Below are positions 8,428 to 61,998 of a stretch of 64,000 nt of DNA, piece after piece. This stretch comes from a virus. Positions within the stretch are counted from its first letter, which is position 1, and each line of letters begins with the position of its first letter. The notes under the pieces are model-generated. The model was not told the DNA's origin. It made no database searches and worked only from the letters and a program-made list of their open reading frames with translations. The stretch spans positions 64,001 through 128,000 of IMG/VR virus record IMGVR_UViG_3300017917_004222, one strand, 5' to 3'. The translations under genes were made by a program, and so were the position numbers.

Positions 8428-10236
8428 ATGGCTGACAAGAAGAATGCCTCATGGCGCAAGTATTTCAAGGTCGCTGACACCTCAGGTGTGATGAGCCCAA
8501 TTTCGGGCAGTAACCAATATGGCCTTCCGGGCTATGGCAAAAACGACGGATCTGGCTCAACCACAGCTGATTTTACTTTCAAGAACTATGCCAGCCGCTT
8601 GCCTGAAGTGTATTCGGGCCACCCCAACCGTGTGGAGCGTTACAACCAGTACGAAAACATGGACATGGATTCGGAAATCAACGCCTGCTTGGACATCATT
8701 GCTGAATTCAGCACACAGATGAACCTGGACAACGGCACACCGTTTGAGGTCGAGTACACTGACAAGCCCACTGATCACGAAGTCAACATCATACGCAAAC
8801 AGTTGCAACAGTGGGTCAAGCTCAACCAGTTGGATCAGCGCATATTCAAACTGTTCCGCAACACCATCAAGTATGGCGATCAAGTGTTTGTTCGTGACCC
8901 CGAAACATTTGAAATGTACTGGGTGGACATGAGCAAGGTCATGCGTGTGATCGTTAACGAAAGCGAAGGCAAACGTCCCGAACAGTATGTGATTCGAGAC
9001 ATCAACCCCAATTTTCAAAGCCTCAGCATAGCGCAGAAAACCACCACGGACTACATGACCAATCCAGTTACTGGTACTATTTCGGGGTCAGCAAACTACA
9101 CCATGCCCAACGGCGGTGTTGGCGGCGGGGTAGGCAATTCACGCTTTATGACTGCCATGAACGAGACTTGCATTGACGCCAAGCATGTGGTGCACCTGAG
9201 TCTCAACGAGGGCTTGGATGTGTTTTGGCCGTTTGGTCGCAGTGTGTTGGAACAGATTTACAAGGTTTTCAAGCAGAAAGAACTGCTGGAAGACGCTATC
9301 TTGATCTATCGTGTGAGTCGTGCTCCGGAACGCAGAGTGTTCAAAATTGACGTGGGCAACATGCCTAGCCACTTGGCTATGGCGTTTGTGGAACGTGTCA
9401 AAAACGAGATGCATCAGCGTCGTATCCCCACTGTGGCCGGTGGCGGACAGAACATGATGGATGCCAGCTACAACCCGCTCAGCATCAACGAAGACTACTT
9501 CTTCCCCCAAGGTCAAGACGGCCGTGGATCTAGTGTTGATGTGCTGCCTGCTGGCGCAAACCTAGGCGAAATCGACGACCTCAAGTACTTCAACAACAAA
9601 ATGGCCCGTGGTCTGCGTGTGCCCTCCAGCTATCTGCCCACTGGTCCGGATGACTCAGATCGCAGTCTCAGCGATGGCAAAGTGGGCACAGCCCTGATTC
9701 AAGAGTATCGTTTCAACCAATACTGCGAGCGTTTGCAAGGACACATTGCACAGAAGTTGGACGACGAATTCAAGATGTTCTTGAAGTGGCGCGGTTTCAA
9801 TATTGATTCCAGCCTGTTCAACATCAAGTTTGCACCACCACAGAACTTTGCCAGCTATCGCCAGGCCGAGCTAGACACCACACGAATTCAAGCATTCAGC
9901 AGCCTTGAAGCACTGCCCTACATGAGCAAGCGTTTCTTGATGGAACGATTCCTGGGCTTGAGCGAGGACGAGATTAGAAAGAACGAAGAAATGTGGCGTG
10001 AAGAGCGAGATCAGCCCGAAGTGCAAACCACATCTGGACAAGATCTTCGCAGTATCGGTATCACCCCAGGCGGTATTGAATCTGACCTTGACATGGGTCA
10101 AGAAATGGCTGGCCTGGAGCAAGCTGGTGCCATGCCCGGTGCTGCGCCTGGCGCCATGCCCGGTGCTGCTCCTGGTGGCGCGCCTGGTGGAGTTTTGCCA
10201 GCATCGGGAACACCGCCAGCACCAGGTTCGGTATAA
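8428..10236 (+). CDS. gp20: Portal protein
   Basis: LLEDAILIYRVSRAPERRVFKIDVGNMP, EDYFFP, LRVPSSYL; first gene of the head module. Confidence 0.95.
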   Translation: MADKKNASWRKYFKVADTSGVMSPISGSNQYGLPGYGKNDGSGSTTADFTFKNYASRLPEVYSGHPNRVERYNQYENMDMDSEINACLDIIAEFSTQMNLDNGTPFEVEYTDKPTDHEVNIIRKQLQQWVKLNQLDQRIFKLFRNTIKYGDQVFVRDPETFEMYWVDMSKVMRVIVNESEGKRPEQYVIRDINPNFQSLSIAQKTTTDYMTNPVTGTISGSANYTMPNGGVGGGVGNSRFMTAMNETCIDAKHVVHLSLNEGLDVFWPFGRSVLEQIYKVFKQKELLEDAILIYRVSRAPERRVFKIDVGNMPSHLAMAFVERVKNEMHQRRIPTVAGGGQNMMDASYNPLSINEDYFFPQGQDGRGSSVDVLPAGANLGEIDDLKYFNNKMARGLRVPSSYLPTGPDDSDRSLSDGKVGTALIQEYRFNQYCERLQGHIAQKLDDEFKMFLKWRGFNIDSSLFNIKFAPPQNFASYRQAELDTTRIQAFSSLEALPYMSKRFLMERFLGLSEDEIRKNEEMWREERDQPEVQTTSGQDLRSIGITPGGIESDLDMGQEMAGLEQAGAMPGAAPGAMPGAAPGGAPGGVLPASGTPPAPGSV

Positions 10237-10574: not shown

Positions 10575-11354
10575 ATGAACAAATTTGAACAGTTGATTGA
10601 ATACGTGATCAACGATGAAGAAAGCAAAGCTCGCGAGCTGTTCCACGAAATCGTGGTTGAAAAGAGTCGTACCATCTACGAAAGTCTCATGGACGATGAA
10701 GACCTCGGCGGCGATGCTGCTGATGACTTGATTGATGAAGTTGAGTCTGAAGAAGAGTCCGACATCAACATGGAAGCCGAAGGCGACGAAGAGATCGATG
10801 ATGAAGAAATCGACATCGACATGGGCGACGACCTAGGCGATGACATGGGCGACGACCTAGGCGATGACCACCACGACGATGTGGGCGGTGACGAAGAGCT
10901 CGAAGACCGCGTGATGGACCTGGAAGACAAGCTGGACGAACTCATGGCCGAATTTGAAGAACTCATGGGCGACGAAGGTGGCGACATGGGCGACGGCGAT
11001 GACTTTGGCGATGACGAAGGCGGCGATGCCATTGAAATGGACGACACCGAAGAAATGGAGCCCATGGCTGAAGCCATCAGTCTCAAGGCCGCTCCCAAGC
11101 CAGTGACATCTGAACAAGGTGACGGAAAGGCAGGACCTGTTGCATTCAACAGCGGCGCTGCTGGTATGGCAGCCAAGCCTGTGCACCCAACTGGCACTGA
11201 AGCACAAGGCCGTGCAGCCCCCACAACCAAGGATCTGATTGGTGACTTCCAGAACAAAGCTGGCGCCAGCATGAAAGATCAAAAAGCGGCTCCCAAGCCA
11301 ACAACTGGTCAGGCCAGCGGCGTTAACACCCGCACACCTTTCCCGAAGGGTTAA
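10575..11354 (+). CDS. Highly acidic prohead core protein (gp67/gp68 position)
   Basis: Asp/Glu-rich; immediately upstream of the protease; SD AGGAG. Confidence 0.65.
   Translation: MNKFEQLIEYVINDEESKARELFHEIVVEKSRTIYESLMDDEDLGGDAADDLIDEVESEEESDINMEAEGDEEIDDEEIDIDMGDDLGDDMGDDLGDDHHDDVGGDEELEDRVMDLEDKLDELMAEFEELMGDEGGDMGDGDDFGDDEGGDAIEMDDTEEMEPMAEAISLKAAPKPVTSEQGDGKAGPVAFNSGAAGMAAKPVHPTGTEAQGRAAPTTKDLIGDFQNKAGASMKDQKAAPKPTTGQASGVNTRTPFPKG
10818..10865 (+). repeat. Exact 24-nt tandem duplication (DMGDDLGD x2)
   Basis: gacatgggcgacgacctaggcgat x2. Confidence 0.9.
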
Positions 11355-11358
11355 TTGA

Positions 11359-12000
11359 ATGTCGTCTCGTTACCTAAGAGAAGATCTTACTTTTGTCCAG
11401 GCCAACATTCAGGTTCTTGAGGAATCTGATGCGGCCACCGGCGGTAAGAATCTGTATCTCAAGGGCATTTGCATTGAAGGCGACAAGCGCAATGCAAACG
11501 AGCGAATCTATCCACGCCACGAGATCATCAAGGCAGTTGAAACCATTAACGAACAAATCCGCAATGGCAACTCTGTATTAGGTGAAGTGGACCATCCGGA
11601 TGATCTCAAAATCAACCTTGACCGAGTGTGTCACTCGGTCGAGAGTATGTGGATGGACGGACATGCCGGCTGCGGCAAACTCAAAATATTGCCCACCCCC
11701 ATGGGCAACCTTATCAAAACATTGCTACAATCTGGCGTGAAACTGGGTGTTTCCAGTCGCGGTAGTGGCAACGTGGATGATAGGACCGGACATGTAAGTG
11801 ACTTTGAAATTGTCACTATAGATGTGGTTGCTCAACCCAGCGCCCCCAACGCATACCCAACCGCGGTGTACGAAGGACTCATGAACATGCGACACGGTCA
11901 CCGTGTCCTGGATATGGCTCGTGAAGCTGGTCAAAGTGACAAAGTGCAGAGATACTTGGCCGAGGAAGTAAAACGCCTTATCCGGGATCTCAAAATCTAA
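11359..12000 (+). CDS. gp21: Prohead core protease
   Basis: NANERIYP, LGEVDHP, LGVSSRGSG, DVVAQPSAPNA. Confidence 0.95.
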   Translation: MSSRYLREDLTFVQANIQVLEESDAATGGKNLYLKGICIEGDKRNANERIYPRHEIIKAVETINEQIRNGNSVLGEVDHPDDLKINLDRVCHSVESMWMDGHAGCGKLKILPTPMGNLIKTLLQSGVKLGVSSRGSGNVDDRTGHVSDFEIVTIDVVAQPSAPNAYPTAVYEGLMNMRHGHRVLDMAREAGQSDKVQRYLAEEVKRLIRDLKI

Positions 12001-13127: not shown

Positions 13128-14324
13128 ATGTCACAAGAACTACTCGAAAGTCGTTGGGATGAAACCAAAGAGGCCCTTCTCGAAGGCCTTAATGGTACCA
13201 AACGCAACAGCATGCGTGTTATCCTCGAGAACACACGCAAGTACCTGAAAGAAAACGCTTCTGCAGGTAGCACCACAGCTGGCAACATTGCCACCCTGAA
13301 CCGCGTGATCCTCCCAGTGATCCGACGTGTGATGCCAACCGTTATTGCTAACGAGTTGGTTGGTGTTCAGCCCATGACTGGTCCTGTTGGACAGATCCAC
13401 ACTCTGCGTGTGCGTTATGCCCAAAGCCTGACCGACACCAGCGCAGCCGCCACCAGCGTCACAGCTGGCCAGGAAGCTCTGAGCCCGTTCACCATCGCTA
13501 CTGCATACAGCACAGTGCCCAAAGACACTGCGTCTACCAACAGCTACACTGGTGGTAACACTGCTGTGATGGAAGGCAACGGCGGCAAGCAGATCTCCGT
13601 GCAGATCCTGAAGCAGGCTGTTGAAGCCAAGACCCGTAAGTTGCAAGCTCGTTGGACCTTTGAATCGGCCCAAGACGCTCAAGCCATGCACGGTATCGAC
13701 GTTGAAGCTGAAATCATGGCCGCTCTGGCTCAGGAAATCACAGCTGAAATTGACCAGGAAATCCTGTTGAGCCTGCGCTCACTGGCTGCTACTGAGTTCA
13801 CATACAACCAGGCTACCGTTAGCGGTACTGCTACTTTCGTTGGTGACGAACACGCCGCTCTGGCAGTTCTGATCAACCGCGTGGCAAACCTGATTGCTCA
13901 GCGTACACGTCGTGGTGCTGGTAACTACGCTGTGGTCAGCTCTGCTGCTCTCACAGTGCTGCAAAGCGCTACCACTTCGGCTTTTGCTCGTACCACTGAA
14001 GGTACTTTCGAAGCTCCTACCAACACCAAGTTTGTTGGTACACTGAACGGCGCAATGCGTGTGTTCGTTGACAGCTATGCCAGCGACACCACTCCTGTGC
14101 TGGTTGGTTACAAGGGCTCCAGCGAAGCTGACGCTCCTGCATTCTACTGCCCATACATCCCCTTGATGAGCAGTGGTGTTGTGTTGGATCCAACCACATT
14201 CGAACCAGTCGTGTCATTTATGACGAGATATGGGTACATCGAGTTGACAAATACTGCAAGTTCGTTCGGTAACGCGGGCGACTACGTGGGCGAAATTGCT
14301 GTTTCGAATTTGAGCTTCAGCTGA
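13128..14324 (+). CDS. gp23: Major capsid protein
   Basis: LVGVQPMTGPVG, TRKLQARWT, EITAEIDQE, FYCPYIPL, FMTRYG. Confidence 0.97.
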   Translation: MSQELLESRWDETKEALLEGLNGTKRNSMRVILENTRKYLKENASAGSTTAGNIATLNRVILPVIRRVMPTVIANELVGVQPMTGPVGQIHTLRVRYAQSLTDTSAAATSVTAGQEALSPFTIATAYSTVPKDTASTNSYTGGNTAVMEGNGGKQISVQILKQAVEAKTRKLQARWTFESAQDAQAMHGIDVEAEIMAALAQEITAEIDQEILLSLRSLAATEFTYNQATVSGTATFVGDEHAALAVLINRVANLIAQRTRRGAGNYAVVSSAALTVLQSATTSAFARTTEGTFEAPTNTKFVGTLNGAMRVFVDSYASDTTPVLVGYKGSSEADAPAFYCPYIPLMSSGVVLDPTTFEPVVSFMTRYGYIELTNTASSFGNAGDYVGEIAVSNLSFS

Positions 14325-14443: not shown

Positions 14444-15208
14444 ATGAAACCTTATACCTATCTAATCAAACATCGTCCTTCGGGCAAAGTCTATTACGGA
14501 TTCCGCTGTGCAAATCGAGTGGAACCGCACGAAGACTTGTGGAAACATTACTTTACCAGTAGCCCTAAAATTCAGCAACTTATAGAAGAAACAGGCGCAG
14601 ACAGCTTTGATACAGAAATACGTCGAGTGTTTGAAACCAAAGAACAAGCTGTGGCTTGGGAAACTCGTGTGCTGACTCGATGCAAAGTTCTACATGACGA
14701 TCGTTGGATCAATCAAAACGTAGCAGGGTATATTGTGCCCACCGAGGAAAGCCGAAAGAAGATCAGCGACTTCCACAAAGACAAACCCAAGAGCGAGGAC
14801 CATAAAGAAAAAATACGCCAAGGCAATCTTGGAAAAAAGAAGCCGCCTCGTAGCGAAGAATATAGAGCTCTGATGTCTACGTTAAAATCAGGAGAGAATA
14901 ATCCAAGGTACGGCAAAGAAGTATCAGAGGAAACTCGACGTCGAATCAGCGAAGCCAAGAAGGGCAAACAGGTAGCACATAACAAAGGACAGGCTATGAG
15001 TGAAGAACAAAAAGCCAAGATACGTGCCGCCAAAGCTGCTAACCCTGTCAAGATGAGTGCAGAATCAATTCAAGCAAGAGCTGATAAACTACGAGGACAA
15101 CGTCGACCCAAGCTGCACTGTGGTCACTGTGGTAGAGACATTGCAGCAGGCTGGTTTCACCGGCACGGTGATCAGTGCAAACACCGCGGCAGTAGCGCCC
15201 AGGACTGA
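14444..15208 (+). CDS. GIY-YIG (Seg-like) homing endonuclease with NUMOD3 repeats
   Basis: YTYLIKHRPSGKVYYG, YFTSS; repeated SEE..RKIS motifs; C-terminal CGHC. Confidence 0.85.
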   Translation: MKPYTYLIKHRPSGKVYYGFRCANRVEPHEDLWKHYFTSSPKIQQLIEETGADSFDTEIRRVFETKEQAVAWETRVLTRCKVLHDDRWINQNVAGYIVPTEESRKKISDFHKDKPKSEDHKEKIRQGNLGKKKPPRSEEYRALMSTLKSGENNPRYGKEVSEETRRRISEAKKGKQVAHNKGQAMSEEQKAKIRAAKAANPVKMSAESIQARADKLRGQRRPKLHCGHCGRDIAAGWFHRHGDQCKHRGSSAQD

Positions 15209-49402: not shown

Positions 49403-50011
49403 ATGAAACCATTTGCAAAATATCTTGCCGAGAGCGAACGCACATACGATTACAGGATCAAAATCCTGGGCCGTGTCGGCGACGATCTTGTGCGACAACT
49501 CAAACAAAAACTGGCACAATTTGATCCAGTCTCGGTGGGGGAGTTGAAATCAACTCCCATACAAAAAGTACCTACCGATTTCCCGGGCAGTCAAAACGAA
49601 GCAGTGAGCATGTTTGACGTCAAGTTCAAGTATCCTGCAATTGACGCACAGATCAAACAGTTGTGGCAGTTGCTGGGCCAGAACCCCAACCACATCATCA
49701 TGGGCACGGTCAAGCATGCTGAAGGTCTTGCAAAAGAATATCAACGCATCGAAGATGAAAACAAAGACCTGATCAACGATACTGATTACCCCGAACCCGA
49801 TAGCGAGCAAAAATCACTCAGCCGTGACTATGCTGCAGAACCGCATGACCATGTGGTACTAAAAAATGCTTATCGAAGTGATTTCACCATTGCCGGCGGC
49901 CGCACTCCTGCTGCCAAAACCACCAATGACATTGCGCAAGGTACCAAGAGTCCAATGACCAATGTCAAGCGTCCAGCCAAGCCAGCTACTGGCCGTAACC
50001 CAAGAGGATAA
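49403..50011 (+). CDS. Putative internal head protein
   Basis: N-terminal MKPFAKYLAE resembles the T4 capsid-targeting sequence. Confidence 0.55.
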   Translation: MKPFAKYLAESERTYDYRIKILGRVGDDLVRQLKQKLAQFDPVSVGELKSTPIQKVPTDFPGSQNEAVSMFDVKFKYPAIDAQIKQLWQLLGQNPNHIIMGTVKHAEGLAKEYQRIEDENKDLINDTDYPEPDSEQKSLSRDYAAEPHDHVVLKNAYRSDFTIAGGRTPAAKTTNDIAQGTKSPMTNVKRPAKPATGRNPRG

Positions 50012-50016
50012 ACCAA

Positions 50017-52521
50017 ATGTCATTTTTTTACGATCTCAACAAAAAACTACAGCAAGTGCTGGAATCCCCCAAGAGCGAGCACAAACAACTGAACGAGGGC
50101 TGGAAGGGCGGCGCAGCTGGTGCTGGCGTGGGTGCAGTGGCTGGCGGGCCAGTTGGTGCTGCCATTGGCTCGGTGCTGGGCGACAAAATTGGCGATGAGC
50201 TGGGCGAAACTGGCTACAGCGCCCGGGCAGCCAGTGCTGGACGAGACATTGGCAAACCCGGCAAGAACTTTGCCAAAATTGCCAAAAGTGCTGGCGAGCG
50301 CTACGGCTCTAAAGAACGCGGCGAAGCTGTGGCAGGCGCTGTGCTCAAGAAGCTGCGAGCCAAAAACGAAGGTGTTGATTCTGACGCTGGCGATGACAAC
50401 CGAGTGTCCACAGTGGTCCGACTGTTGAAGCGATTGCTGACTTCGGAAGCACTACGTGACGCCTACGACATTGGCGAAGATGATGTGTTCCAAATTGAAG
50501 AGCTGGCAGCTGCATTGGAAAACAATGACATGGAAGCAGCACAAGACGCATGGAGCGTGTTTGATGTGAACGAGCTGGACAATGCATTGGACAGTTATGT
50601 GGCCGACAATGGGCTCGAAACCGGTTACTTGTTTGACCTACTGGGCCACAATGTGAACGAAGGCTCCAAAGTTCCAACAGACTGGATGGGAGTCCCTACT
50701 AAGCTGGGCAAAAATGACAAGAAGCCAATCCAGTTCCCAGCAGGGTATGATGAATATATCAAGCAGGGTGCCAAGCATGGATTCCAAGATGATCCCAACA
50801 ATCCTCTGCGTAAACGAGTCAAAAAAGCAGGCGTAGCAGAAGGCCGCCATACTCAATCCAACGCACTGGAACTGAACCCTGACCTCCGGGCCCAGGCCAA
50901 CAAGCCCACAGTGGCCGGCCGCATTGGCAGCGCAGCCAAGCGGGTGGCAAACGCCATCACTGGTGGCAGCGATGAAGACGCCAAGAATCGTTTGCTGAAC
51001 CGCATGGGCGGCCGCCGCACTCCCCTGGCACGTGATGACATGTCCGAAGCCACTAAAGAAATCCCGGGCGGTCGTCGTCACACATCTGAGCCAGGTGGCT
51101 ACGGTCGCAAGGACGACGACGAAGCCCCCAAGGCAAAAACTCAGCGTGGTCGTGGTCGTCCCAAGAAGGGCGGCGACAGCGAAACAGGTGAAGTCAAGAA
51201 GTACGACTGGAGCGCATTTGGTGCAACTGGCAAGGATGTCAAGTTGCCCAAGCACTCGGGTACCGTTACCAAGCACAAAATGAGCGACGAAGAACCCAAA
51301 AAGAAAGTCAAAGAAGCCACCAAGGAAATCCCAGGTGGACGTCGTCACACTGCTGATGCAGGCGGCTATGGTCGCCGAGACGACGAAGATGACAAGGGCA
51401 AGCGAGTCGCAGCTCAAGTCAAACGTGGCCGTGGTCGTCCCAAGAAGGGCGGCGATAGCGAAACAGGCGAAGTCAAGAAATATGACTGGAGCGCATTTGG
51501 CGCCACAGGCAAAGAAGTCAAACTGCCCAAGCACAAGGGCAATGTTACTCGGCACAAGATGGACGAGGCTGTGAGTGAAGATGATCTTGCAGTTCTTGAA
51601 CGACTCATGGACCAGGCGTTTGCCGAAGGCAACACTGCCCTAGGCAATGATATTCAGGGTGTGATCGAGCGCATCCAGGGCGATCAAGACGAAGGCCAAT
51701 ACGATGACGAGCCGGTGAACGAAAAAGCTGTGAGTAAAAAGCAGCAACGGTTCATGGGCATGGTGCATGCTGCACAAAAAGGTGAAAAGCCTGCGTCAAA
51801 AGAAGTGGCCAAAGTGGCCAAGGAAATGCCCAAGAAGGAAGCTGAAAAGTTTGCCAAGACCAAACAAAAAGGCCTGCCCGAGAAAAAACAAGCCACTGAC
51901 GAAACATCAGACAGCAAGCCAGCCAAAGGCGGCATGACTTTTGGCAAGGGCATTTATGACAGCATGAATCGTGAGCTAGAGAGCATGATTGCTGAAAGCA
52001 TGAGTGTTAACTTGAGCATGAATGATGACGGCCATGGCGGTCCACGCCGCAGCCTCACAGTGACTGCCACTGACGACGATGCAACCAAGCTGGCTGAACT
52101 ACTGAAAATGGCTGGCATTGGCGACGAATCATCTGCTGAGTCAAGTGACTGTGGCTGCGACGAGCTTGAGGAAAACCAAGCCGATTGGCCAACTGATGCT
52201 GAAACCAGCAATGATCCGTTCCAGTACTCGGGAGGACTCAATGGTCCCAAGAGCACAGGACAGACCACTGGTGCTCCGTTCAACCGTCAACCGCAGCGCC
52301 AGGGCGCCATGGTAGACGAAGAGGACGAATTGGCTCGCATGATGGAAATGGCTGGTGTCAAGAAAGGCAGCAAGCCCGACTATGTTGACCTTGACAAAGA
52401 CGGCAACAAAACCGAGCCCATGAAGCAAGCGGCCAAAGACGCCAAGGAAGACAGTGCAGATCAAGTGGACGAAGGCATCCTCGGCGCCACTCGCAATCTG
52501 TGGAAAACCTATCAAGGCTGA
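50017..52521 (+). CDS. Modular putative internal head polyprotein with two AT-hook modules
   Basis: Many x-x-E|G/A junctions; duplicated module containing RGRGRPKK. Confidence 0.65.
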   Translation: MSFFYDLNKKLQQVLESPKSEHKQLNEGWKGGAAGAGVGAVAGGPVGAAIGSVLGDKIGDELGETGYSARAASAGRDIGKPGKNFAKIAKSAGERYGSKERGEAVAGAVLKKLRAKNEGVDSDAGDDNRVSTVVRLLKRLLTSEALRDAYDIGEDDVFQIEELAAALENNDMEAAQDAWSVFDVNELDNALDSYVADNGLETGYLFDLLGHNVNEGSKVPTDWMGVPTKLGKNDKKPIQFPAGYDEYIKQGAKHGFQDDPNNPLRKRVKKAGVAEGRHTQSNALELNPDLRAQANKPTVAGRIGSAAKRVANAITGGSDEDAKNRLLNRMGGRRTPLARDDMSEATKEIPGGRRHTSEPGGYGRKDDDEAPKAKTQRGRGRPKKGGDSETGEVKKYDWSAFGATGKDVKLPKHSGTVTKHKMSDEEPKKKVKEATKEIPGGRRHTADAGGYGRRDDEDDKGKRVAAQVKRGRGRPKKGGDSETGEVKKYDWSAFGATGKEVKLPKHKGNVTRHKMDEAVSEDDLAVLERLMDQAFAEGNTALGNDIQGVIERIQGDQDEGQYDDEPVNEKAVSKKQQRFMGMVHAAQKGEKPASKEVAKVAKEMPKKEAEKFAKTKQKGLPEKKQATDETSDSKPAKGGMTFGKGIYDSMNRELESMIAESMSVNLSMNDDGHGGPRRSLTVTATDDDATKLAELLKMAGIGDESSAESSDCGCDELEENQADWPTDAETSNDPFQYSGGLNGPKSTGQTTGAPFNRQPQRQGAMVDEEDELARMMEMAGVKKGSKPDYVDLDKDGNKTEPMKQAAKDAKEDSADQVDEGILGATRNLWKTYQG

Positions 52522-52523
52522 TC

Positions 52524-54167
52524 ATGAAATCATTTCGCGAACATCTAAGAGAGACACAAGAAACATTTGATCGCCCGGCAACGGGCGATGACTTCGCCAT
52601 CAACATTCGTGAAGAATGCTTGATCGAAACCTATGTGGTCGACGAGACAGCCGACGGCATTGTGCTGCATGCTGACGAGCGCATGATGCGATTGCTAGAA
52701 TCTTACGGTTACGTGCAAGAAGGTGGCGTCAAGGAAATGTTGATTGGTGCTGCCGAGCGCATGACACTTGATGAGTTCATTGATGCCTACGGCAGCCAGT
52801 TTGGACCCGACGAAGCAGAAGAATTCTGGCACACTGTGAACGACGAAAATGAAGTTGAACAGTCTGGTCCGGGACACTGGATGCACGAGGAAACTTTTGT
52901 TGCGGCAAACAGTGATGGTATATCACACCAGGATGCTGGCGAGTACGATTACGAAGGCGACATGGCCAAGGATGACTTGAGCACAATCATTCGTGCTGCT
53001 CGTCGACTCACAGGCATGCTGGACGACAACGAAAACATGCCCGAGTGGGTGCAGAGCAAAATCAACAAAGCCGCTGACTATGTGGACACAGCCGCCGATT
53101 ACATCGAGTCCAACAAAGAACGCGGTGTCATGGAAGGCGGTGATCCTGCAACTTACCGGGCAAAAGCCCAAGAGGCACACGCCAAATATCTCAAGTACGA
53201 AGACTTGGTTGATCAGGAGTTGAGAAAACTAGGTGAGCGTCTGCCTCGGTCCTGGGATGCCAACGCCTTTCAAAACAAGTTGTCCAGCGACCCCAAGTAT
53301 GCCCAGGCCTTGAAGTATTACAAACTCAGCGAAAAATTTGGCGGCCTAGCCGTTCGTTATAAAGAACTGTCCAAGAAGCGGGGCATGGCAGAAGGTCAGT
53401 TGGCCAACCCAGACAACCAAGACTCGCCTGTGGCCCGAGCAATCACACACCGCATCCTTATGCAACACACTGGCCTGTTGGCCAAATACGGCCCCGAGCG
53501 GGTCATGGACGCTGTGGATGAAGTGGCTGATTTTGTCGGCGATGTAGAAGAAATTGGGTCAAGCGATGTGTCGGGCTGGGTGCGTCATGTGGAACAGATG
53601 CTGACCAACATGCCCGACAGCTTGGATGAACAATATGGCGACGAGTTTGACAACGAAGAGGACGAAGAAGACGAAGCAAACGGATTCTACGTGGTAATTG
53701 CCAGCGAAACCAATGGCGTGTTTATTGGCCAAGTGATCAAGGACGGCAGCAAGTGGCGCGAAATGGGCGGGGTTGGTAAACAGCCCTACAGCTGGGGCGG
53801 AAACTACATGGGCTATCTTTCCCCGGATGACGTGATCAGCTGGATACGTAAAGACTACCGCAATGCTGAGGTGGACGGCCCGTTCTCAAGCGAGGACGAA
53901 GCACAACAAGCTGCTGACAATTTGAGCGAAGCCAAATACCAAGGACGTGAAGTTCCACTAGGCAAACCCATGCAGGGCGATGTCAAGAAGAGCAAAGTCT
54001 ACGTCCGCGGACCCAAGGGCAACGTGGTCAAGGTCAACTTTGGCGACCCCAACATGCGCATCAAGAAAAGCAACCCCGAGCGTCGCAAGAACTTCCGTGC
54101 GCGCCACAACTGCGACAATCCAGGTCCACGTTGGAAAGCACGCTACTGGAGTTGCCGCGCCTGGTAA
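52524..54167 (+). CDS. Modular putative internal head polyprotein
   Basis: MKSFREHLRE start; GVME|G, GMAE|G, LDE|Q and LSE|A junctions; C-terminal FRARHNC..ARYWSC module. Confidence 0.65.
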   Translation: MKSFREHLRETQETFDRPATGDDFAINIREECLIETYVVDETADGIVLHADERMMRLLESYGYVQEGGVKEMLIGAAERMTLDEFIDAYGSQFGPDEAEEFWHTVNDENEVEQSGPGHWMHEETFVAANSDGISHQDAGEYDYEGDMAKDDLSTIIRAARRLTGMLDDNENMPEWVQSKINKAADYVDTAADYIESNKERGVMEGGDPATYRAKAQEAHAKYLKYEDLVDQELRKLGERLPRSWDANAFQNKLSSDPKYAQALKYYKLSEKFGGLAVRYKELSKKRGMAEGQLANPDNQDSPVARAITHRILMQHTGLLAKYGPERVMDAVDEVADFVGDVEEIGSSDVSGWVRHVEQMLTNMPDSLDEQYGDEFDNEEDEEDEANGFYVVIASETNGVFIGQVIKDGSKWREMGGVGKQPYSWGGNYMGYLSPDDVISWIRKDYRNAEVDGPFSSEDEAQQAADNLSEAKYQGREVPLGKPMQGDVKKSKVYVRGPKGNVVKVNFGDPNMRIKKSNPERRKNFRARHNCDNPGPRWKARYWSCRAW

Positions 54168-56889: not shown

Positions 56890-56933
56890 ATTGCTCACTG
56901 GGCAGCAGCCCTAGCACACGTTTGGAGATTCTC

Positions 56934-58520
56934 ATGATCGCTAACAAAGCCAGTTCACTAGAAACGGTATTGGTCAAAACCCCACACCGTCGTGAAACCT
57001 ATACAGACCAAGAATTGATGGAGTTTGCCCGATGTGCAGACCCAGTCAACGGCCCCATGTATTTCATGGACCACTACTTTCACATTCAGCATCCCACACG
57101 TGGCAAGATGCTGTATCAGCCGTTTCCGTACCAAAAAAAGCTGATTGAAACCTATCACCGTTATCGCTACAGCATCAGTCTCATGCCGCGACAGACTGGT
57201 AAATCAACATCAGCTGCAGGCTATCTGTTGTGGTACGCCATGTTTGTGCCCGACAGCACCATTCTCATTGCGGCACACAAGTACACAGGTTCACAAGAAA
57301 TCATGCAGCGCATTCGATTTGCCTACGAGCTGTGCCCCAACCACATACGTGCAGGTTGTACCAGTTACAACAAAGGCAGCTTGGAATTTGAGAACGGCAG
57401 TCGTATTGTGTCGGCCACCACAACAGAAAACACTGGTCGTGGTATGAGTATTTCGCTGTTGTACGCTGACGAATTTGCGTTTGTGCGACCCACCATTGCG
57501 CAAGAGTTCTGGACTTCTATTTCGCCCACGCTGGCCACAGGTGGTAAGGCCATCATCACATCAACTCCCAACAGTGACGAAGACAAGTTTGCTGAGATTT
57601 GGAAAAGCGCCAACAAGTGTCTTGACGAAAACGGCAACACCACTGAACTGGGCATCAACGGCTTCAAGGCTTATCGTGCTTACTGGAATGAACATCCGGA
57701 TCGTGATGAAAAGTGGGCTGCAGAGCAGCGGGCTCAGCTGGGCGAAGAACGTTTTCGTCGTGAGATGGATTGCGAATTTGTTATCAATGATGAGACCTTG
57801 ATTTCGCCTATCAAACTGTTGGATCTTGAGGGCGTGGAACCTCGATACAAAACCGGACAGGTGCGCTGGTACAAACCATTGTCCAAGGACCGGATGTACA
57901 TTGTGGCCCTGGATCCCAGCCTGGGCACTGGCGGCGACCCAGCAGCCATACAAGTGTTTGAAGCTGAAACAACCGAACAGGTGGCCGAGTGGAAACACAA
58001 TCGAACTGACATTCCCACGCAGATTCGCATCATGGCCGACATAGTGAAAGAAATCCACGACGTGGTCAAGGACAGCAAAAAAATCTACTACAGTGTGGAA
58101 AACAATACCCTGGGCGAAGCTGCACTGATATCTATTGCTGAGTACGGGGAAGAAAGCATTCCGGGATACTTTCTAAGTGACAACTCGGTCACAGGCTCGG
58201 GAACTCAACGATTCCGCAAAGGCTTTAACACCACCCACAAGGCCAAGGTCACTGCCTGTAACAAGTTCAAGATTCTTGTGGAATCGGGGCGTATGAAACT
58301 GCACAGCAAGCCCTTGATCAGCGAACTCAAAAACTTCGTGGCCAAGGGCAACAGTTTTGCTGCCAAACCTGGCGAGACTGACGACCTTGTGATGGCCAGC
58401 CTCTTGATTATTCGCATGTTGATGTTGTTGCAAACTTACCATGCCGAATTGGACCAGCACATCAAAGATCACAATGATGTCATTGTGGAACCTTTTCCCT
58501 TTATATCTGTCATGCGCTAA
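56934..58520 (+). CDS. gp17: Terminase large subunit
   Basis: PRQTGKST Walker A, LLYADEFAF Walker B, IITSTPN, ALDPS, DDLVM. Confidence 0.95.
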   Translation: MIANKASSLETVLVKTPHRRETYTDQELMEFARCADPVNGPMYFMDHYFHIQHPTRGKMLYQPFPYQKKLIETYHRYRYSISLMPRQTGKSTSAAGYLLWYAMFVPDSTILIAAHKYTGSQEIMQRIRFAYELCPNHIRAGCTSYNKGSLEFENGSRIVSATTTENTGRGMSISLLYADEFAFVRPTIAQEFWTSISPTLATGGKAIITSTPNSDEDKFAEIWKSANKCLDENGNTTELGINGFKAYRAYWNEHPDRDEKWAAEQRAQLGEERFRREMDCEFVINDETLISPIKLLDLEGVEPRYKTGQVRWYKPLSKDRMYIVALDPSLGTGGDPAAIQVFEAETTEQVAEWKHNRTDIPTQIRIMADIVKEIHDVVKDSKKIYYSVENNTLGEAALISIAEYGEESIPGYFLSDNSVTGSGTQRFRKGFNTTHKAKVTACNKFKILVESGRMKLHSKPLISELKNFVAKGNSFAAKPGETDDLVMASLLIIRMLMLLQTYHAELDQHIKDHNDVIVEPFPFISVMR

Positions 58521-58530
58521 ATAACTGACT

Positions 58531-61500
58531 ATGGCAACAAGCAACAATATTGGCAAAGATCTCGTGGATTTGCTGGCCACCCACAACTTTGATGTTGAAA
58601 CATCCAGCGCCAAAAACCCATCGGCCACCCCCGACGAAGCCACAGTGTTCAAGTTTGATTACGTGAGTCAACACAATCGCAACTACGGCACTGCAGTTAT
58701 CGTGATTGGTGACGACAATGACCTCATTTTGTTCTACGGTGACAATCTGGGACGGGGCATGGAACCCGAGGACAAGGACGAATGGTTTGCGTTCATGAAA
58801 GAGCTCAAGGATTTTTCAGTACGCCACAACTTCAAAACATTCAGCCCCAAAAACCTCAATCAACTCAAGCACACCATGCAAGGCATGGCAGCCATCAAAG
58901 AAGGCTTGTTTGAAGGCTACTATGGATCTCGACGGGTCAGCTACATGGGTCCGGCTACCGAAGCACGACTGGTGATCAATCACAATCGGCTGATTGGCGA
59001 AAATGACAAGCGATTCCGTTATATCGAAAGCCTGTTTATCGAGACTGTGGAGGGCGAACGATTCCGCTTGCCGTTCAAGCACATGGCCGGAGCTCGAGCC
59101 ATGCTGGAGCATGTGCGCCAAGGTGGTCGTCCGTATGACATTCGGGGCCAGCACATTGCTGATGTTGTGAACGAGATGTCGGTGTTGTCACGTTTTCGAC
59201 GTGCGCAACAAGGACGAGTGTTTGAGGGAGTGACACGGGAGTTGGTAGAGCAGGCCAACCAGTATTACCAGTCGTTGCACACCAATCTCAAGCACATGTC
59301 CAGCAATCGCGGGTACCGTTCGTATTTTGAATCCTGGACTCCGGCCGACATTGGGCCAGAAGAATCCCTAGTGGAAGATCTGCGAACCATGTTTGTGGAA
59401 CAAACCATAGACAGCAGAATTGAACAAGCATTGCCTACCCTGGCCAAGCTAAAAGGAAAAACAATGAAAGAAGCTGATATTTTTGAATCATGGGCCAACC
59501 GGTTGACCGAAGGCACTTGGGCACTGCCCGACAATCCCGAAGCACAAGAAAAGCTCAATCAACTCATGAGCAGTGAGCTGATTGTGGGGCCAGATGCAAC
59601 CAATGCCACAGAACTGTTGTACGATGTTGTGGGCGACGATGAGCTGTATGACATCCTTGACGATTTGGCCGCAAGGAACCCTAGAGCCAACATCTGGGAC
59701 GATTCTGATGTGATTCAGCGCATGCAAGAACTAGGCATTCAGCTGCCCAACGGCGATGAAGAACCCAACACCAACATGGATATGCCAGCGCCTGGCGACG
59801 CTGCCGAGGTCAGAGAAGGCGACAACCTGGCGACATTTGTCGAAGGCAGCTGCAATCACACCCGGGAAGGCGAATACTGCCCCGAGCATGGACTCATGGA
59901 ATGCGGCATGTACGAAAGCATGGGCGGCACAGTGGCTGGCGCTGTTGCTACTGGAGTGCCGCATGCGTCAGAAGGTGTGGAGGAAGGCTCCGCAAAGTAT
60001 ATCAAGCGCAGCGTGGCAGGTTGGGGCTGGTACGACAAAGACAAGCCTAAAGATGTGGTGAATAAAGTCAAGGGTCAAGACACAGATGTGCTAAAAAGGC
60101 TGCATGAACCTGACACCAAAAAAGGCAAGGGTTCTCCTGCTGAACTACAACAAAAAGCCATCAGTCGTGAGTTGAAGAGGCGTGGTAAGCAAGGTGTAGG
60201 GGAAGCTGAATATGATTCTAGAAAACCCTATGGGGTTCGTTATAGAGTATTTGCCGGGCGTGACGGCAGATTAACTACTAAAGAATTTTGGACTACCTCG
60301 TCGGAAAAATTAAAAAAGGCCGTTGCCAAAATTGAAGCCTTGGGCAACTTCTACGAAATTGACGGATATAGCTATCCCAAAGAACAGCCGGGCGTGTCAG
60401 AAGAATATACGCAAGTTCACGAACTAAGTAAAGACACTCTGCAATCATATCGTGACCGGACAAAAGAAAAGCGAGCTGCATACAACGCTGCAATCCGGCA
60501 CGCCGGCGATCCGCCACTGGGCATGACATCTACCCACTCTAGTGATGAAGTAGACCGGTGGATTAAAAAGTATGATAAAATGGGCGGCGGTATGAAAAAG
60601 GCTGCCAACAGAATCAAAAATTTAGATAAGCAAGGCGTGTCGGAAACCAATGTTGCAAAATACCGAGACCTGGGCGCTACTGCAGACACTACCCACTTTG
60701 TCAAGAACGTCACCACAGGCAAGATTGTGAGTCCACATCGCAGCCGTCAAGATGCCGAAGACGCCCTGGTTGCGTTGCAGCGTCGCCCTGACGGCAACGA
60801 ATACAAGATTGTTCGTGCCAGAAAAGATGTGACCGAAGGTGATGATCGTGGCGATTATCACTCTACTGCCCGCGCTGCCGAACAAGCCACAAGGCAAGCC
60901 AAGGACCCTGCAGGCCACCGAAAGGCAGCAGGTTTGCATGACCGTGCAGCAACTTATGCGCTATCGGCCGGTCACGACAGCAGTGTTGTCCACGATCACC
61001 AAATGGCAGCACGGGAACACACCCGAGCAGCCCGAGGATTGACTAAAAGCTCGTTGGAAGAAGCCGGCGGAGCAAAACAATACAATGAATTCAAGCGTGA
61101 ATGGCGTGCAAAACACGGTGCTGATGCCAAAGTTCCCGGCTATGATAGCCGAGAATATACATCCTACTGCTATCGTCAACTTGATAAAAAGCATGGTGTG
61201 TCAGAAACCCGAGCTGATCCCACCAGCACCTGGGTGGTGTATGACGGCAAAAAAGTTCAGCGTTTCAAAACCCACGCTGGTGCCAAGGCCTATGCTGAAA
61301 AGCACGGCGGCAAAGTTGCAAGCTCGGCGCACTATGCCGATCGCATCCAAAAGTCCGAAGTAAAGGAAGGCTTGGACATCGAAGCCGCTCGTGAACGACT
61401 TGCATCACTGCAGAGGGACCTGAAGGCAGTGACCGGCAATTATCCCGGCGATGATCGTAATCGCATGATCCTGCGCAGGCAAATATTTGATCTGAAGGCA

Positions 61501-61998
61501 CAAATCAAATCAGCAGGCAGCAAGAAATCTGAGGTGAAGGAAGGCCAACTCAACGAATATCTAGTGAACGAAGGAGAACCGTTTTCTGAGGTATTGAATC
61601 TGAATGTGTTTATGGACACCAGCCCAGATGGTCAAGTAGGGATGGATCATGATCCTCAATGGCAACAACTAATGGCAAAATATCAACCCATTGCCAAACA
61701 GTTAGAGCAACAAATACAAGCACTTGACGAGTACGAACTCTCGCCCAAAGAAGTAGACGCAATTCACAATGTTTGGTATGATGGATCAGACGCCTATGAT
61801 GACATGGAAGTTGATGTTCTAGCCAGGCTCTACGACCAGCAAATCAAGTTGGTCAAACGAATGATAACCGTTAGATTGAGAAAGCAAGGTGTGTCTGAAG
61901 ACTCAACTGACCCCATGGACCATCGTGGTGCTGTGACCGACAGCTTCCGTGAAAGTCTGGATCGCATAAAAACTCTGGCACAGATTCGCAAGAGCTAA
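58531..61998 (+). CDS. Large protein: ordered N-terminal region plus C-terminal array of small modules (putative head polyprotein)
   Basis: Late promoter; repeated KQGVSE/KSEVKE-type linkers every ~50-110 aa. Confidence 0.75.
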   Translation: MATSNNIGKDLVDLLATHNFDVETSSAKNPSATPDEATVFKFDYVSQHNRNYGTAVIVIGDDNDLILFYGDNLGRGMEPEDKDEWFAFMKELKDFSVRHNFKTFSPKNLNQLKHTMQGMAAIKEGLFEGYYGSRRVSYMGPATEARLVINHNRLIGENDKRFRYIESLFIETVEGERFRLPFKHMAGARAMLEHVRQGGRPYDIRGQHIADVVNEMSVLSRFRRAQQGRVFEGVTRELVEQANQYYQSLHTNLKHMSSNRGYRSYFESWTPADIGPEESLVEDLRTMFVEQTIDSRIEQALPTLAKLKGKTMKEADIFESWANRLTEGTWALPDNPEAQEKLNQLMSSELIVGPDATNATELLYDVVGDDELYDILDDLAARNPRANIWDDSDVIQRMQELGIQLPNGDEEPNTNMDMPAPGDAAEVREGDNLATFVEGSCNHTREGEYCPEHGLMECGMYESMGGTVAGAVATGVPHASEGVEEGSAKYIKRSVAGWGWYDKDKPKDVVNKVKGQDTDVLKRLHEPDTKKGKGSPAELQQKAISRELKRRGKQGVGEAEYDSRKPYGVRYRVFAGRDGRLTTKEFWTTSSEKLKKAVAKIEALGNFYEIDGYSYPKEQPGVSEEYTQVHELSKDTLQSYRDRTKEKRAAYNAAIRHAGDPPLGMTSTHSSDEVDRWIKKYDKMGGGMKKAANRIKNLDKQGVSETNVAKYRDLGATADTTHFVKNVTTGKIVSPHRSRQDAEDALVALQRRPDGNEYKIVRARKDVTEGDDRGDYHSTARAAEQATRQAKDPAGHRKAAGLHDRAATYALSAGHDSSVVHDHQMAAREHTRAARGLTKSSLEEAGGAKQYNEFKREWRAKHGADAKVPGYDSREYTSYCYRQLDKKHGVSETRADPTSTWVVYDGKKVQRFKTHAGAKAYAEKHGGKVASSAHYADRIQKSEVKEGLDIEAARERLASLQRDLKAVTGNYPGDDRNRMILRRQIFDLKAQIKSAGSKKSEVKEGQLNEYLVNEGEPFSEVLNLNVFMDTSPDGQVGMDHDPQWQQLMAKYQPIAKQLEQQIQALDEYELSPKEVDAIHNVWYDGSDAYDDMEVDVLARLYDQQIKLVKRMITVRLRKQGVSEDSTDPMDHRGAVTDSFRESLDRIKTLAQIRKS

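Follow-up and report, generated by a model that had tools for sequence, protein, structure and literature searches.

In phage T4, the prohead protease gp21 cuts after Glu in [L/I]-x-E sequences, as at ITE-6 and LTE-619 of Alt, and the propeptides or leaders concerned are 10-20 residues long (PMC5694885; PMC9026906). The T4 internal proteins IPII and IPIII both start, according to the T4 record, with MKTYQEFIAE/A (a slash marks a known or presumed cut throughout). Another described class, the polyvalent proteins of phages, carries 2-15 domains in a single protein, and some of these are delivered uncut (PMC5512222). Here we analyzed an open reading frame (ORF) of 1155 codons at positions 58531-61998 of a 64,000-nucleotide (nt) window, by which we mean the whole stretch of DNA under analysis (positions 64,001 to 128,000 of IMG/VR record IMGVR_UViG_3300017917_004222). 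The window is part of a 147.8-kb viral contig of an uncultured phage, and since CheckV puts the completeness of this contig at 43%, it should derive from a jumbo phage of roughly 340 kb. The ORF, which sits between TerL and gp32/UvsX, consists of a virion-type domain followed by nine small modules joined by a standardized linker. Our results show that related phages acquire, lose and swap modules at this linker or no more than a few codons away, and the gene product is probably a polyprotein of the phage head that combines a carrier with its cargo.

Results

Organization of the ORF

The ORF can be divided into the following parts, all on the plus strand. L083/P0042 is the closest relative, described below, and the other P numbers are further proteins with homologous modules.

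58531..61998, plus strand: whole ORF, stop codon included; a single open frame of 1155 amino acids (aa) with candidate carrier domain, module array and tail
58531..59760, plus strand: N-domain (aa 1-410), virion structural protein family; phrog_13484 match, fold without assignment
59761..59985, plus strand: disordered hinge (aa 411-485) with a Cys motif and the first site, GVEE/G; predicted local distance difference test score (pLDDT) below 50
59986..60204, plus strand: M2, 73 aa, isoelectric point (pI) 10.0, ends KQGVGE; full-length at 73-85% in proteins with capsid-targeting-like leaders (e.g. P0164, P0167, P0168)
60205..60402, plus strand: M3, 66 aa, ends QPGVSE; at least 25 homologues at 62-92% identity
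60403..60645, plus strand: M4, 81 aa, ends KQGVSE; 93% identical to L083/P0042, also in P0194
60646..60837, plus strand: M5, 64 aa, ends KDVTE; missing from L083
60838..61062, plus strand: M6, 75 aa, His-rich, ends KSSLEE; 85% identical to L083
61063..61206, plus strand: M7, 48 aa, ends KHGVSE; 94% identical to L083, many homologues in leader-bearing proteins
61207..61368, plus strand: M8, 54 aa, ends KSEVKE; 70-88% in P0090, P0185, P0195 and others, not in L083
61369..61542, plus strand: M9, 58 aa, ends KSEVKE; one homologue, P0234, at 84%, not in L083
61543..61899, plus strand: M10, 119 aa, acidic (pI 4.4), ends KQGVSE; one homologue, P0152, at 64%; third-position GC content (GC3) 0.42
61900..61995, plus strand: conserved 32-aa C-terminal tail (..DSFRESLDRIKTLAQIRKS), kept across the family

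The Glu residues that end the linkers lie at aa 485, 558, 624, 705, 769, 844, 892, 946, 1004 and 1123, that is, at nt 59985, 60204, 60402, 60645, 60837, 61062, 61206, 61368, 61542 and 61899. A first-pass annotation, made from the sequence alone, had placed all ten linkers exactly. Counted to Glu, the nine modules are 73, 66, 81, 64, 75, 48, 54, 58 and 119 aa long; that annotation had seven of these lengths right, and the third and ninth, which it gave as 74 and 109 aa, are corrected here. Ten of the ten junctions read [VL]-x-Glu followed by a small residue, mostly in the form K-Q-G-V-S-E, and thus bear out the proposal that the linkers follow the [LIV]-x-E rule of T4 gp21. In aa 431-1155 we counted six copies of the motif G[VIL][SGAET]E where 0.25 would be expected, and none of 20,000 shuffles had as many as six. 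It is absent from the N-domain, and a stricter form of the motif was found in no other six-frame ORF of at least 80 aa in the whole 148-kb contig. Separate small genes or internal starts were considered and rejected, because all 1155 codons are open, none of the modules opens with a start codon and selection acts in this frame.

The N-domain matched phrog_13484, a family annotated as virion structural protein (E 4.8e-10), and is ~29% identical to PA5oct gp206, a structural protein detected by mass spectrometry (tblastn E 1e-10). AlphaFold2 (AF2), run with 62 sequences, folded residues 4-410 confidently, with pLDDT mostly above 90, in agreement with the ordered N-terminal region seen at first pass, and predicted residues 410-485 to be disordered (pLDDT below 50). 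Comparison of the N-domain model to the PDB with Foldseek assigned no fold (best E 0.017), and a VIA wide fold search returned only generic helical bundles (Z at most 7.4). When the whole 1155-aa protein was searched against Pfam and PHROGs, the only PHROGs match was the one in the N-domain, and Pfam found no embedded peptidase (MPTase), LPD or enzymatic polyvalent domain.

The Cys motif of the hinge, C-N-H-T..GEYCPEHGLMEC (nt 59851-59904, aa 441-458), is possibly a metal knuckle. Its general form, C-x-H-T..GEYCPEHGL-x-EC, is kept in the family; it precedes the array here and follows it, beside the tail, in most homologues, indicating that arrays can occupy either side of the motif. The tail, which the first-pass annotation had not mentioned and whose general form is D-x-L-A-R-I-K-S-L-A-L-L-K, ends nearly all family members as well as some leader-bearing polyproteins. 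The ORF starts MATSNNIGKDLV, and a T4-like N-terminal capsid-targeting leader (~10 aa ending in [L/I]-x-E) is absent from it.

The modules are unrelated to one another and under purifying selection

Profile-profile comparison gave a probability of at most 2.2% between any two modules, which are therefore mutually unrelated, as their dissimilarity had suggested. Seven modules, M2-M5 and M7-M9, have a basic pI of 8.9-10.0; M6, at 7.3, is close to neutral, and M10 is acidic (4.4). GC3 ranges from 0.33 to 0.57 by module compared to 0.58 in the N-domain, so that some modules are indeed AT-richer than the core. The ratio of nonsynonymous to synonymous substitution (dN/dS) relative to L083 was 0.12 for M3 and M4 together, 0.07 for M6 and 0.18 for M7, and the corresponding dS values were 0.27, 0.77 and 0.15. 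The low ratios and unequal dS values point to purifying selection and a mosaic history of the modules.

Structure prediction was applied to one module, M3, for which AF2 with 28 homologues gave a compact beta-beta-alpha-beta unit (pLDDT 80-88) flanked on both sides by linkers with pLDDT below 50. M3 is thus a compact body between disordered linkers and not a portion of one fold that runs across them. A fold search with the M3 model assigned no fold (best E 0.18), and per-module searches of Pfam, PHROGs and the ESM Atlas returned no family or fold with a known function. If the modules avoided cutting of their own interior, [LIVM]-x-E sites should be depleted there, but depletion was not seen in the modules (5 compared to 5.7 expected) or in the wider pool (254 compared to 272.5, P 0.098); folded T4 proteins carry uncut sites too, which makes this test uninformative. 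Alignment of the whole array with 47 homologues by MAFFT misaligned most modules.

Modules are gained, lost and exchanged at the linkers

An exhaustive profile search retrieved 2117 relatives of the protein. Among the 150 best, residues 1 to ~420 are 36-68% identical, and total length runs from ~400 to 1748 aa. The gene is present in 80 IMG/VR loci; 74 have TerL before it and 76 have gp32 after it, and its length across the loci varies from 464 to 1391 aa. It had been proposed that orthologues would differ in module content with breakpoints at the linkers, and this is what the 80 loci, and L083 in particular, revealed.

The L083 gene is truncated at its 5' end and is followed by gp32 and UvsX. 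It contains M3, M4, M6 and M7 at 84-94% DNA identity, compared to 79.5% for the flanking gp32 and uvsX. M5 is not present, and nt 434-450 of L083 align to both of the linkers that flank M5 in our sequence; M5 is an exact linker-to-linker indel between the two genes. L083 furthermore has three extra modules between M6 and M7 and unrelated content in place of M8-M10, and in this comparison a 33-nt stretch (linker plus 'TRAD') is common to two different junctions. A scan of viral contigs with M8-M10 found no close relatives.

Across the family, 15.4% of internal homology breakpoints had a G[VIL]xE within 3 residues, compared to 4.1% of random positions (3.7-fold). A cruder first test, which used all ends of high-scoring segment pairs, showed no enrichment, being dominated by pairs that run through the Cys motif, tail and linkers, and was replaced by this filtered breakpoint test together with a motif-free junction logo. 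Clustering of 298 proteins yielded 386 module families, in which M3, M5 and M7 have 7-15 different neighbours per side compared to 2-4 for pieces of the N-domain. M5 has 15 homologues with 15 different left neighbours, and M3 is 78% identical to its counterpart in P0090 although the N-domains of the two proteins are only 44% identical. These results show that modules are gained, lost and exchanged at the linker or within a few codons of it.

For the junction logo, which assumes no motif, we took the sequence that immediately precedes each of 73 unique module homologues and obtained the following counts.

P4: Gly 38, Ser 13, Asp 8
P3: Val 46, Met 7, Leu 5 (58/73 together)
P2: Ala 35, Glu 11, Ser 8
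P1: Glu 65/73
P1': Gly 27, Thr 15, Ala 9, Asp 9

The P1 Glu is thus kept in 65 of the 73 junctions whatever module adjoins, including the divergent forms QVDE/G, RMSE/G and TVFE/G, and upstream of M3 it is invariant (29/29 sequences). The commonest 5-mers in the C-terminal extensions of the relatives are GVAEG and QGVAE.

The linkers are also conserved in part as DNA. In 43 unique GV[A/S]E sites from the fetched loci, a count that is inflated by shared descent of the sites, Gly is encoded by GGT in 86% (background 37%), Val by GTG in 91% (35%) and Ala by GCG in 74% (6%). Conservation of the silent positions of the linker (GGT GTG GCG GAA) across the family fits the suggestion that it serves as microhomology for recombination. 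In the gene studied here, the linker DNA reads AAG CAA GGY GTR KCN GAA with variable third positions, so that the DNA similarity described at first pass holds in part. Ser is encoded by TCA, TCG or TCT and Gly by GGT or GGC, yet the peptide rule is kept, and three linker types without G-V (KSEVKE, KDVTE and SSLEE) still read [V/L]-x-E. The peptide motif persists here after decay of the DNA motif, which indicates a separate constraint at the protein level.

Modules recur in proteins with T4-like leaders

A search limited to shorter proteins gave 87 matches of 158-633 aa, 85 of which lack the N-domain; the remaining two are an N-domain fragment (P0206) and the truncated orthologue P0042. Modules therefore do occur in other genes. 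Each of the 85 proteins contains one of the modules, mostly full-length and at 63-89% identity, two also match the Cys hinge motif, and G[VILM]xE is usually found at both projected module boundaries. Most of these proteins open with leaders such as MKSTEFIAE, MRFTEFISE or MKITDIIVE, and their C-terminal units are DUF6321, GP88, ..ARYWSCRAW or the LxRIKxLA tail.

Upstream of TerL, the window contains candidate cargo genes of this kind, and ORF 54639 likewise has a T4-like leader.

49403..50011, plus strand: candidate cargo gene with T4-like leader MKPFAKYLAE/S
50017..52521, plus strand: 834-aa modular protein with KKAGVAE/G
52524..54167, plus strand: candidate cargo polyprotein with leader MKSFREHLRE/T and sites KERGVME/G and KKRGMAE/G

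The modules of ORF 52524 are 40-71% identical to array segments of P0027, P0105, L003, L009 and others. On two contigs from lake jumbo phages of this clade (L085 and L086), leader-bearing genes lie next to one another in runs, one with ten GVAE-type sites. The module pool of other family members includes LPD11 (found once among the 48 members scanned), LysM, glycine zippers, a SutA RNA polymerase-binding-like motif and sigma-70 region 4. Altogether, our results show that the array consists of cassettes from a large module pool, which is common to leader-bearing head-cargo polyproteins.

Some features of these neighbouring and related genes were noted in their own right. Within ORF 50017-52521, positions 51049-51567 hold a tandem duplicate of a ~85-aa unit with RGRGRPKKGG (AT-hook-like), each copy of which follows an x-x-E site in the translation. 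The last ~80 aa of ORF 52524-54167 (53922-54167) form a C-terminal unit (..GPRWKARYWSCRAW) that recurs at 44-70% in phages of Pelagibacter, Roseobacter, Methylophilales and Flavobacterium and in Nitrosopumilaceae spindle-shaped viruses, and is labelled 'HVA1 family protein' in two records. Positions 2147-2686 of L089 correspond to P29B0810_170 of Synechococcus phage S-WAM2, a cultured T4-like cyanophage; this 179-aa protein starts with the leader-like MKTFKQLRE, and its C-terminal module is 60% identical to aa 137-196 of ORF 52524. In L085 (1130-4204) and L086 (2756-5886), DnaJ and a ClpB-like disaggregase are encoded a few kb upstream of the cargo polyprotein clusters.

A gp21-type protease and T4-type head genes in the window

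The window encodes a T4-type head module (portal, acidic protein, protease, scaffold-like protein and major capsid protein).

8428-10236: portal gp20
11359..12000, plus strand: prohead protease, the presumed processing enzyme; Pfam Peptidase_S77 PF03420 (E 1e-22), T4 gp21 structure 5JBL (E 1.9e-13)
Between the prohead protease and gp23: scaffold-like protein
13128-14324: gp23 major capsid protein (MCP)
56922-58520: TerL, outside this module and before the 1155-codon ORF

The gp21 homologue that had been reported at 11359 is indeed an S77 protease with the His/Ser/Asp triad present: GEVDHP, GVSSRG and IDVV of the 213-aa protein align with GELNHP, GVSSRG and VDAV of native T4 gp21. In the stretch of MCP homologous to FLTE/A of T4 gp23, the window protein has ILE/N and LKE/N.

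Between the portal and protease genes, positions 10575-11354 encode a 259-aa, extremely acidic protein with Asp/Glu/Gly repeats and no family match, located where T4 has gp67 and gp68. A GIY-YIG/NUMOD3 homing endonuclease (14444-15208) directly follows the MCP gene, a placement equivalent to that of T4 segD after gene 23. In ten syntenic loci (among L003-L083), the N-domain is 48-69% identical compared to 71-86% for TerL, 72-93% for gp32 and 89-95% for UvsX, and thus evolves faster than these neighbours.

Discussion

Proposed mechanism

We propose that the protein would enter the prohead via its conserved N-domain and C-terminal tail, and that the gp21-type serine protease would then cut after Glu at exposed, disordered [K/E]-Q-G-V-[A/S]-E/[G/T/A/D] junctions. 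Cutting would yield nine small proteins, most of them basic, with masses of 5.6-13.8 kDa that are similar to that of T4 IPII; they would remain with the DNA and reach the host upon infection. One short element would be both the cut site and a frame-preserving recombination joint, and conservation of its DNA (GGT GTG GCG GAA) at silent positions across the family suggests that it could work in both ways. Cleavage of the array is likely, and retention of the pieces in the head with subsequent injection is a more tentative step, to which we give a little under an even chance. Any role of the modules in the host is inferred.

Several points weigh against this carrier-plus-cargo reading. The small cleavage fragments of T4 core proteins largely exit the capsid (PMC5694885), so that retention of pieces of 48-119 aa is not guaranteed. 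The virion location is predicted from the ~29% identity of the N-domain to PA5oct gp206, and the cultured relatives (PA5oct and Vibrio phage 2.275.O) have the N-domain only, without the array. Because the ORF starts MATSNNIG, without a T4-like leader, the targeting signal is guessed. None of the modules could be tied to a family or fold with a known function, and silent-site variation in the linkers of this gene makes a role as DNA joint weaker here than elsewhere in the family.

Alternative explanations

The array might be cut while its pieces have no role in the host and instead fill the prohead core or scaffold, or balance the charge of the packaged DNA as basic counter-ions, like the T4 gp22, gp67 and gp68 fragments and internal peptides. 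Such a passive part would fit the pI of eight of the nine modules (basic or neutral, 7.3-10), the cutting of T4 core proteins to short fragments (PMC5694885) and the lack of any resemblance between the modules and known effectors. However, sequence drift should be harmless in filler or in a simple counter-ion, and the modules are under strong purifying selection; near-identical copies are kept in dozens of unrelated contexts, the distinct module families number 386, and the pool also holds LPD11, LysM, sigma-70 region 4 and the SutA-like motif. We therefore regard this explanation as unlikely, although it is the strongest of the alternatives.

If the protein is instead a large, uncut multidomain virion protein comparable to the polyvalent proteins, the motif would be a mere flexible linker between domains. 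The occurrence of LPD11 in one family member and the existence of multidomain phage proteins that are delivered whole (see above) are consistent with this, but a Glu that does not vary, with a hydrophobic residue at the second position before it, is rare in flexible linkers, the motif and T4 gp21 sites obey one rule, the same phages have leaders that end in [L/I]-x-E, and the ORF contains no embedded peptidase or other polyvalent-protein domain; we consider an uncut protein quite improbable. Still less probable is a primary function in the DNA, in which the GGTGTGGCGGAA element would be a site of recombination or gene conversion and the peptide motif a by-product. Such a site would account for the silent positions conserved across the family, among them those of the GCG codon, which is rare elsewhere, and for breakpoints that lie at the element. 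Against this, the peptide rule holds in the present gene while the DNA varies (TCA, TCG, TCT; GGT/GGC); KSEVKE, KDVTE and SSLEE, which lack G-V, keep [V/L]-x-E; and QVDE/G, RMSE/G and TVFE/G keep the Glu. The DNA and peptide roles are moreover compatible, and the best explanation holds both.

Significance

On the carrier-plus-cargo reading, the findings could be extended to a large clade of uncultured jumbo T4-like phages from aquatic habitats, with a cargo system of the plug-and-play kind. An element of 4-6 residues, conserved as peptide and as DNA, would act as head-protease cut site and frame-preserving crossover, and hundreds of injected small proteins would be shuffled among a few head-targeted carriers, marked either by T4-like leaders or by a virion domain plus tail. 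We offer this general scheme tentatively, as somewhat short of evenly balanced. If true, it would mean rapid combinatorial turnover of the set of virion-delivered effectors, and a junction that both preserves frame and directs proteolytic release would explain how the repertoire changes so quickly. Packaged and injected pieces would constitute a large source of phage proteins delivered with the DNA, for example anti-defence or host-takeover factors, and this source is unexplored because its carriers have yet to be cultured and its modules fall in no known family. As a design principle, the junction could be borrowed to load several cargos into T4-type capsids, where packaging by capsid-targeting sequences is already in use.

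Comparison with known systems

We found no phage paper on this arrangement when the literature was searched for the motif and for prohead-protease polyproteins; the 'polyprotein' mentioned in a PaBG paper is irrelevant to the module array. The T4 internal proteins IPI, IPII and IPIII, together with Alt, resemble the system in their homologous S77 protease, in the cut after Glu with Leu, Ile or Val at P3, in their small basic products of similar size, in the leaders like MKTYQEFIAE on neighbouring and module-sharing genes, and in a gene content that differs between related phages (PMC9026906). Sequence similarity of the ORF to T4 internal proteins was not found in Pfam or PHROGs, and the modules gave no significant Pfam match. 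T4 furthermore has one cargo per gene with one or two cuts, whereas here up to ten unrelated cargos share a chain with a standardized internal linker, and the present ORF is leaderless, carried instead by a conserved 410-aa domain and a C-terminal tail.

Several prohead-protease sites in one precursor are also found in T4 gp22, gp67 and gp68 and in the head-protein propeptides of phiKZ, 201phi2-1 and SPN3US (PMC5694885; PMC9026906). In those proteins, however, the extra sites clear propeptides or scaffold, and what lies between two sites is neither conserved in its own right nor exchanged among genes. The phiKZ/SPN3US-type motif is S/A/G-x-E and not V-x-E, whereas P3 is Val, Met or Leu in 58/73 junctions here.

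Polyvalent proteins (Iyer et al. 2017, PMC5512222) likewise join many unrelated domains in one polypeptide, are thought to be delivered with the DNA and have prompted the idea of release by proteolysis; LPD11 in one family member is a further likeness, as is the late or structural gene context; here, nine unrelated modules lie next to TerL and a cluster of cargo genes. They differ in having an embedded MPTase or similar domain and large enzymatic domains (PMC5512222), whereas the present modules are 48-119 aa long and separated by a fixed junction motif for a protease that would presumably act in trans. Finally, PA5oct gp206, NVP2275O_003 of Vibrio phage 2.275.O and the phrog_13484 proteins share the homologous N-domain and the TerL-X-gp32-UvsX position, but they are 445-496 aa long and have no module array. 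Distinctive of the locus described here are a leaderless carrier, made of N-domain and tail, at a fixed syntenic position and a near-isogenic comparison with linker-to-linker indels.

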